Shown here: piece after piece, positions 49,776 through 50,073 of the stretch
How positions within the stretch are numbered: position 1 is the stretch's first letter
Layout of the letters: each line of letters begins with the position of its first letter
IMG/VR virus record: IMGVR_UViG_3300037466_001997
Span: 64,001-128,000 of that record
Strand: one strand, 5' to 3'
Length of the DNA: 64,000 nucleotides
DNA from: a virus
Lineage: Duplodnaviria; Heunggongvirae; Uroviricota; Caudoviricetes
Position numbers and translations under genes: made by a program
Notes under the pieces: generated by a model
What the model was told of the DNA's origin: nothing
The model's database searches: none
Seen by the model: only the letters and a program-made list of their open reading frames with translations

Positions 49776-49804
49776 TACTTATTTCCTCTTGGTAATAACC
49801 TATT

Positions 49805-49833
49805 ATATTAGCAAAAAACTTGAATCTTGTCAA
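49805..49833 (-). promoter_or_regulatory. Sigma70-type promoter for uvsY-uvsW
   Basis: TTGACA-N17-TAATAT. Confidence 0.75.
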
Positions 49834-50058
49834 CCTTGTCAAGCCCTTTTATGAAAAAAGATTCATAGAGATTCCAAAGGTTTAGCCAATTGTTACAAAA
49901 ATTCCCAAAATCGTGATTTGACTCGCTGTTTCCGCTCATATATCGTCACTCTTTATGGAACATAGAGTCTATTATAGAGTCTGATGAATCAAAAAACTAA
50001 GTTTGCCCGATAGGGCACTGCGAAGCAGCAAATGAGTCCAAGTGAATCATAATGACTC
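49822..50058. repeat. Cluster of ten GANTC sites with two hairpins (candidate origin/regulatory element)
   Basis: GANTC at 49822, 49860, 49870, 49920, 49965, 49977, 49986, 50034, 50044, 50054; hairpins at 50004-50017 and 50018-50028. Confidence 0.7.
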
Positions 50059-50073
50059 TTGGATTTTGGTGAA

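Follow-up and report, generated by a model that had tools for sequence, protein, structure and literature searches.

We describe a 298-bp noncoding region (49776-50073), located between a tail-tube-like gene and the recombination-mediator gene uvsY of a large T4-like soil phage, that is packed with ten copies of GANTC, the motif methylated by the CcrM enzyme of Alphaproteobacteria. The region lies within a 64,000-nucleotide stretch of DNA (the window; positions 64001-128000 of a single 196,141-bp phage record), and all coordinates refer to the window unless marked as genome coordinates. We tentatively read it as the control region of uvsY in a T4-like phage that lacks MotA, where the crowded GANTC sites would render transcription sensitive to DNA methylation, a reading to which we give somewhat less than an even chance. 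More broadly, the sequence suggests that this phage may have tied uvsY and an HNH nuclease gene, or else a replication origin, to the methylation state of its DNA.

Density of the GANTC sites and the unit under selection

The ten sites start at 49822, 49860, 49870, 49920, 49965, 49977, 49986, 50034, 50044, and 50054 (spanning 49822-50058), precisely where a preliminary description of this DNA, made from its letters, had placed them, and with the 9- to 12-bp spacings in three groups that it had reported (10 bp; 12 and 9 bp; 10 and 10 bp). Four extra sites (50101, 50138, 50149, and 50202) follow within the 3′ end of the neighboring late gene. The motif is under-represented in the window as a whole (196 sites versus 312 expected from shuffles) and somewhat rarer than expected in the genome (634 sites versus ~770; 3.2 per kb). 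The genome rate predicts ~0.8 sites per 240 bp, close to the single site that had been estimated by chance, as opposed to the 10 seen in the array. A sliding-window comparison, which the preliminary description had proposed, found at most six sites per 240- to 250-bp stretch elsewhere in the window and in the 196,141-bp genome, and the array is the densest GANTC cluster of the genome. The genome has 34 intergenic gaps of ≥150 bp, of which the uvsY gap ranked first with 33.6 sites per kb, followed by the gap upstream of the HNH nuclease gene with 15.8, and all others had 10.4 or fewer; a similar density in other intergenic regions, which had been named as an outcome that would speak against a special role, was thus not seen, the nearest gap reaching about half. 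The phased triple GANTC-N3-8-GANTC-N3-8-GANTC occurs three times genome-wide, twice in the uvsY gap and once in the HNH-upstream gap. The uvsY gap has 35% G+C versus 45% for the genome and holds no conserved open reading frame (frames of 43 and 42 codons are broken by indels and lack a start codon in relatives), in agreement with its description as AT-rich and noncoding.

Two other spots in the genome displayed local peaks of the motif. The third-densest spot (genome 194640-194990) carries 6-8 GANTC sites in ~350 bp of apparently coding DNA, in GGACTCC and GGATTC codon contexts. Minor local peaks occur at genome ~41300-43000, where the single inspected match (~42919-42933) reads GGTTCGAGTCC, a word typical of tRNA T-arms.

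To characterize what is retained, we compared six related gaps, namely, the uvsY gap and the HNH-upstream gap from three phages each. When all 136 words of the form XYNZW were counted in these gaps, GANTC came first, with 40 occurrences versus 5.9 expected (Poisson P ~3e-20), and the next most enriched words, CTNTA and ACNCT, overlap a GACTCTAT subfamily. Across 42 sites (those in the six gaps plus two that straddle the edges), the central base was evenly distributed, the orientation was free, and the flanks were merely A/T-rich, which matches the specificity stated for CcrM (PMC3287173). By a hand count over sites that are not independent of one another, 15 of the 34 distances between neighboring sites measured 8-13 bp, about one helical turn. 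In a crude simulation with uniform substitutions, where one gap was mutated at the observed divergence, 1.7-3.4 sites were predicted versus 5-10 observed, with P values that ranged by pair from <0.0002, where none of the simulated gaps attained the observed count, to 0.22. GANTC was not in excess at 17 other strong promoter-like sites of the genome. Given the word enrichment, the free central base and flanks, the simulation, and the lack of an excess at other promoters, the unit under selection is, as judged from these statistics, GANTC as such, confined to two control regions.

These same data bear on the possibility that the array has no function of its own and is a by-product of A/T-rich composition, of -35 hexamers that happen to be followed by C (TTGACTC), or of shared ancestry. 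Two of the sites do overlap -35-like hexamers, the conserved sites are not independent because the three phages are related, and one simulated comparison gave a P value as high as 0.22. Yet the array is ~10-fold denser than the genome and at least 3.2-fold denser than any long gap other than that of the HNH region, which has about half its density; GANTC leads a field of 136 comparable words; its density is held at a nucleotide identity of 62% by means of new sites; and the other promoters of the genome do without the motif. We therefore regard an array without function as very unlikely.

Conservation in relatives and a second GANTC-rich region

The array is shared by the two closest relatives of the phage (L097 and L098, with UvsY proteins 70% and 64% identical), which were found by protein search and whose contigs are syntenic. 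Their gaps at the same place measure 291 and 320 bp and contain 6 and 7 GANTC sites versus a local background of ~4 per kb, contradicting the absence of the cluster from relatives that the preliminary description had listed as an outcome against it. From the GACTCTATAATRGACTCTATG block (~49981 leftwards) to the start codon, nucleotide identity amounted to 79% and 71%, about the level of the flanking coding DNA (64-82%). Four or five sites are kept in position, and others are lost in one phage and replaced ~25 bp away. At the triple of 49965-49990 (12- and 9-bp spacing; GATTCatcaGACTCtataataGACTCtatg on the minus strand), both relatives preserve the two GACTC sites, as GACTCTATAATRGACTCTATG. 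The pair at 49860-49874, which has a 10-bp spacing, adjoins an A/T tract, and precedes the predicted start of uvsY transcription by ~66 and 76 bp, is retained with a changed central base, reading GAATC..GAATC here versus GATTC..GAATC in both L097 and L098. The triple at 50034-50058, located just past the late-gene stop codon with an exact 10-bp spacing (GAGTC, GAATC, GACTC), is kept in part: GAGTC lies across the stop codon in both relatives, and one further site aligns in L098.

The second GANTC-rich control region lies outside the window at genome 4064-4380, with five sites. It is located upstream of the HNH nuclease gene (genome 3419-4063, minus strand) and separates this gene from a divergent 612-codon late gene with a promoter of the type TATAAATA. 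Orthologous HNH-upstream gaps in the contigs L162 and L163 carry seven sites each versus five here, at 62-80% nucleotide identity; in L164, the HNH gene stands in another context, without the region. We found that the uvsY and HNH regions have short collinear blocks in common, each of them a word that is rare in the genome: GANTC-N7-GACTCTATG; ATAAAGA.GAC; GTCAA[AT]TCAC; TTGTAACAATT.GCTA; and a -35 hexamer directly followed by GATTC. A block similar to the 49965-49990 triple is also present in the HNH-upstream region. An nhmmer profile of the conserved core, run against the genome, found only itself; the likeness of the two regions consists of short collinear blocks and not of alignable homology.

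Such shared blocks raise the possibility that the sites form a binding array, independent of methylation, for a phage or host DNA-binding protein, for instance a nucleoid protein or the regulator of a small regulon made up of uvsY and the HNH gene. The 8- to 13-bp spacing within pairs and triples suggests cooperative binding to one face of the helix, and several of the collinear blocks present in both regions look like operators: GACTCTATG; ATAAAGA, which occurs in all six related regions and here forms part of the conserved minus-strand block ATAAAGAGTGAC at 49945-49956; GTCAA[AT]TCAC; and the palindrome TTGTAACAA at 49890-49898, which is kept in relatives and has the HNH-upstream version AAATTGTAACAATTT. 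The enrichment of CTNTA and ACNCT likewise hints at an extended GACTCTAT word for some of the sites. Against this stands the fact that only G-A-N-T-C is common to the 42 sites, with no longer word in a fixed orientation of the kind that defines an iteron or operator. An even central base, free orientation, and A/T-rich flanks would be unusual for a sequence-specific protein and equal the stated specificity of CcrM (PMC3287173); moreover, central bases are swapped at conserved positions, and site positions turn over as the density is kept. An ordinary operator is, from the pattern of conservation, hard to reconcile with a constraint on GANTC only, and we consider a methylation-independent array unlikely, if worth keeping in view. 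The ATAAAGA block was also considered as a late promoter, which is doubtful, as it is unlike the word TATAAATA that the late promoters of this phage carry instead.

No close relative was found in the public phage collection, against which a megablast of the surrounding 4 kb gave no match. The capsid protein has its best match in Ochrobactrum phage vB_OspM_OC (63% identical), and UvsY matches only vB_OspM_OC (31%) and Caulobacter phage Cr30 (25%) among the entries of the phage collection. When seven other phages of Alphaproteobacteria were searched for the phased triple, it was absent from vB_OspM_OC, Cr30, phiM12, and Cp1R7A-A1, and elsewhere it occurred as single instances in noncomparable places. 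Distant uvsY/uvsW loci on viral and metagenome contigs (at most 46% UvsW and 29% UvsY identity) served as a negative control only: 53 distant metagenome uvsY loci displayed 0-3 GANTC sites in the 300 bp upstream, and the ten closest viral loci that we inspected have no comparable region because uvsY begins only a few bases at most past the preceding gene. Metagenome contigs from two runs cover the region, one of these runs being probably the source of this DNA, and contigs from two other DNA runs do not cover the array; as the covering contigs are identical to the window, they offered no microdiversity to use. No RNA run with this phage was among those listed. GANTC concentrations were also noted in other rhizobial phages, namely, ten sites in 300 bp of apparently coding DNA of Rhizobium phage RHph_I1_18 (L172:1360-1650) and a tight intergenic triple, GAGTCtctaGACTCactcaGAGTC, in Rhizobium phage RL2RES (L173:1501-1524).

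Layout of the uvsY region and the origin alternative

The array sits in a minus-strand block of T4-type genes, which encode, in order, gp46- and gp47-like nuclease subunits, a gp55-like late sigma factor, the UvsW helicase (47795-49240), and UvsY (49296-49775), followed by the gap and the tail-tube-like late gene (50074-50610, minus strand), whose transcript ends within the region. The latter belongs to PHROG 45 (tail tube; E 3e-28), and its orthologues carry PF23849 (Phage_TTP_2). The identity of uvsY, as proposed in the preliminary description, was supported by PHROG 231 (E 3e-11) and by a Pfam PF11056 match just above its cutoff. Its probable start is a TTG (49773-49775) located 8 nt past AAGAGGAA, and both elements are kept in all three phages; automatic gene calls picked a later ATG in two of the three. 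The predicted uvsY promoter (49805-49833, minus strand) is of the sigma70 type, with the hexamers TTGACA-17-TAATAT, a TG before the -10, and a GANTC site (49822-49826) in its spacer. No MotA homologue was found in the genome, so T4-style middle promoters would not be available to this phage. Its late promoters read TATAAATA, as in T4; this word also occurs at ~50821-50828 on the plus strand, ahead of a plus-strand gene at 50888, and throughout the genome it stands before structural genes, including that of the capsid.

Phased pairs and triples of GANTC flank three elements of the region, namely, the uvsY promoter, a twin-hairpin terminator, and a promoter-like element on the opposite strand. 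The two hairpins that the preliminary description had pointed out, TGCCC-GATA-GGGCA (50004-50017) and CTGC-GAA-GCAG (50019-50029), are indeed present and were confirmed to fold as two abutting stem-loops. A terminator scan matched 50017-50004 on the minus strand together with the following AACTTAGTTT, at 45-70 nt past the late-gene stop codon. We thus observed a G+C-rich stem-loop, a T-run on the transcribed strand, and a location 3′ of a gene, the features of an intrinsic terminator; since a T-run (49991-49996) follows them on the minus strand, the twin hairpins are likely the terminator of the tail-tube-like gene. The twin layout is common to the three phages with entirely different stem sequences, in both RNA and DNA folds, and the T-runs of the relatives are weaker. 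Read on the plus strand, the six loops of the three phages all conform to GNA or GNNA with a C-G closing pair (GATA and GAA in the window; GTA and GCTA, and GATA and GTA, at L097:3745-3785 and L098:3725-3760, respectively), and the copy in the window includes GCGAAGC. Loops of this kind with a C-G closure are very stable in single-stranded DNA, and the shared loop type may be a coincidence or a hint of a single-strand function. A scan of the region with Rfam gave nothing above noise. Twin mini-hairpins were sought in the HNH-upstream region as well and are not claimed, as their folding was weak and inconsistent.

The opposite-strand element was found by a promoter scan at 49918-49946 on the plus strand (TTGACT-17-TATCGT), its -35 hexamer overlapping the GACTC site at 49920; on the minus strand, it corresponds to the conserved block GTCAAATCAC. 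In both relatives, it is nearer to the consensus (TTGACA-17-TATAGT and TTGACT-17-TATAGT). A transcript from this element would start near 49953, which would put the 49965-49990 triple at about +12 to +37. It points away from uvsY and runs antisense to the end of the late gene, with no conserved reading frame behind it, and it could be the source of an antisense RNA or of an origin-priming RNA. Its counterpart in the HNH-upstream region is weak.

This layout brings in the possibility that the region is a methylation-marked replication origin, a counterpart of oriF or ori(uvsY) of T4. A transcript from either promoter would form an R-loop in the adjacent A+T-rich stretch, with methyl-adenines that ease unwinding or mark the origin as used, akin to the GATC sites of Escherichia coli oriC. 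In T4, ori(uvsY) combines a promoter with an A+T-rich unwinding element, where an R-loop forms (PMC3016281). Like T4 oriF, the gap is flanked by a late structural gene and by uvsY, with uvsW adjoining (PMC3016281), and the opposite-strand element is followed by a 51-bp stretch of 27% G+C that includes a GANTC triple; intergenic DNA in this genome is A+T-rich throughout. Stable hairpins with a conserved structure adjoin this stretch; the genome has a second GANTC-rich region, and T4 has several origins; and authors who tested phage GANTC methylases suspected a link with replication (PMC5537653). Other observations point away from an origin. The T4 origins need no cluster of methylation sites (PMC3016281), the hairpins are adequately explained by the terminator, and the opposite-strand promoter is weak in the HNH-upstream region. 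We found no DnaA boxes (with at most one mismatch) and no conserved CtrA boxes in the six regions. GC skew was tried as evidence and set aside, as it does not single out the site: its cumulative minimum at ~114 kb falls where the genes change strand, and an equal minimum occurs at 128-130 kb. We judge the origin reading improbable on balance, yet as the main rival of methylation-sensitive transcription control.

Two further uses of such an array were weighed, namely, packaging regulated by methylation, as at the pac site of phage P1, and a target array for restriction by an enzyme of the HinfI type (GANTC). The seven Dam (GATC) sites of P1 pac form two groups on either side of a central segment, and the likeness of the present array, in which two triples flank the hairpins, is formal only. 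There are two such regions in this genome, each directly upstream of a gene, and headful packaging in T4-type phages does not rely on a unique pac site. For a phage, furthermore, clustered restriction sites would be a liability. We consider both uses extremely unlikely.

Host, methylases, and relation to known systems

The host of the phage is very likely alphaproteobacterial and probably belongs to the Rhizobium order, as indicated by a GapR gene, the affinities of UvsY and of the capsid protein, and a rhizosphere origin. The gene for the GapR-type nucleoid protein (PF10073, 118-120 bits) lies at genome 13660-13875 on the minus strand; it has 120 matches among sequenced phages, almost all of Rhizobium, Agrobacterium, Caulobacter, Ruegeria, Brevundimonas, Ochrobactrum, and Sinorhizobium, and the best match (75%) is to a Mesorhizobium phage. 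Of all the observations, this gene is the strongest pointer to the host. Rhizosphere metagenome runs of two studies contain >90% of the sampled phage words, and both studies yielded contigs that equal the window over the region. The phage encodes a DNA methylase of the PF01555 family (genome 190993-191793, minus strand; L001:1444-2244), which is a beta-class adenine or cytosine methylase with a DLPY catalytic motif. Its best phage match is gp10 of Burkholderia phage Bcep781 (60%), and it is not an orthologue of the known GANTC-specific phage enzymes; no Dam-type methylase was found in the phage. Phages of Alphaproteobacteria often encode GANTC methylases, the role of which is unexplained (PMC7139368, PMC5537653), and the specificity of one of them, PhiOC_p213 of phage vB_OspM_OC, has been established experimentally (PMC7139368).

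If the array controls transcription in a methylation-sensitive manner, its adenines would be methylated by host CcrM, by a phage methylase, or by both, and replication of the phage DNA would convert them into hemi- or unmethylated sites. The methylation state, read by host GcrA in its RNA polymerase-bound form or by some other methyl-sensitive binder, would then alter promoter use at the uvsY and HNH regions. In this way, the expression of recombination genes would be timed to the replication of the phage DNA or to the cell-cycle state of the host. A more elaborate version, which we hold to be rather unlikely, casts the GANTC arrays of the MotA-less clade as a timer coupled to replication: The methylated incoming genome would fire a promoter or an R-loop origin at the uvsY region, replication would erase the marks, and the un- or hemimethylated state would turn on uvsY and the HNH nuclease, which would take over replication. 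If that were true, the phage would read its own replication history together with the cell-cycle methylase of its host, and the timer would also account for the frequency of GANTC methylases among phages of this host class.

The fit of the transcriptional reading to the known behavior of GcrA is uneven. Caulobacter GcrA prefers the sequence YGAKTCK and acts at sites no more than ~40 bp from the transcription start, either around -20 or between +2 and +30 (PMC4647560). Most sites of the array fall outside this range. At the uvsY promoter, a single site lies at -28 and is not conserved; at the HNH promoter, a conserved site lies at -29; and the triple of 49965-49990 would come to lie at about +12 to +37 of the opposite-strand element if the latter is a real promoter. 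The HNH promoter site, TGATTCT, is located just after the -35 of the HNH promoter, at -29 to -25, in all three phages. Judged against the Caulobacter rules, the fit is thus poor for most sites and good only for the HNH promoter site.

Several observations weigh against methylation-sensitive control of transcription. The majority of the sites precede the uvsY start by 60-280 bp, beyond the range of Caulobacter GcrA (PMC4647560), and the HNH promoter site is the only one with YGAKTCK flanks, which it matches in full. The hexamers of the uvsY promoter are kept in the relatives, and the spacer GANTC at 49822 is not. Several sites lie within longer conserved blocks (GACTCTATG and TTGACTC), so part of their retention could serve another reader. 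The phage has no GcrA gene, and the match of its PF01555 methylase to the GANTC-specific PhiOC_p213 is confined to the cofactor-binding end, that to CcrM being weak. The nearest isolates, vB_OspM_OC and Cr30, have neither a GANTC cluster before uvsY nor a phased triple anywhere, and the assignment of the host is one that we infer. The preliminary description had proposed a switch or an origin that senses methylation through host CcrM and GcrA, and this proposal stands in part: GANTC is enriched with a free center and free flanks and is kept in relatives, an alphaproteobacterial host is very probable, and the position matches that of ori(uvsY) in T4; its choice of GcrA as the reader fits one site well and most sites poorly.

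In enterobacteria and their phages, Dam and GATC provide the classic examples of clustered methylase sites gating a promoter, an origin, or a packaging site, and control by CcrM through GANTC is classic for the chromosomes of Alphaproteobacteria. In the literature that we searched, which was not exhaustive, we found no description of a conserved GANTC array in a phage control region. The closest phage parallels are the mom promoter of phage Mu, with three GATC sites read by OxyR, and P1 pac; in both, a phage control region is packed with sites for a host-type (and phage-encoded) adenine methylase, and methylation gates its function. They differ from the present array in the motif (GATC, not GANTC), in host class, and in phage type. 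E. coli oriC, where a GATC cluster is subject to sequestration by SeqA, has a density of methylase sites of a similar order (10 in ~240 bp here), many of them helically phased; unlike oriC, the array is without initiator (DnaA) boxes, and we know of no SeqA-like reader in Alphaproteobacteria.

The array is a member neither of the Caulobacter class of GcrA promoters nor of the MotA-dependent origins of T4, as the defining features of both classes fail. With the CcrM/GcrA-controlled promoters of Caulobacter and Agrobacterium (ctrA P1, mipZ, and ftsZ; PMC4647560, PMC3667746, PMC13687562), it shares the motif, promoters of the sigma70 type, and very probably the bacterial class. Those promoters, however, have one or two sites within ~40 bp of the start, whereas the phage gaps have 5-10 sites over ~250 bp that lie mostly far upstream with nonpreferred flanks, and, unlike those chromosomal promoters, the array is carried by a T4-like genome of the virulent type without a GcrA gene. 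With T4 oriF or ori(uvsY) (PMC3016281), it shares the place upstream of uvsY and beside uvsW and perhaps also the combination of a promoter and an A+T-rich stretch. T4 oriF, in contrast, uses a MotA-dependent middle promoter and has no cluster of methylation sites, whereas the present phage is without MotA and its promoters have -35 hexamers. The array thus bears on the timing of replication and recombination genes in MotA-less T4-like phages. Lastly, the GANTC methylases PhiOC_p213 and PhiLM21_p027 (PMC7139368, PMC5537653) illustrate that phages of Alphaproteobacteria copy the specificity of CcrM; the methylase encoded here falls into a different branch of PF01555. The array is a candidate cis-target for such GANTC enzymes, and together with the HNH region, it would provide concrete, mutable targets in cis for the unexplained GANTC methylases of phages.

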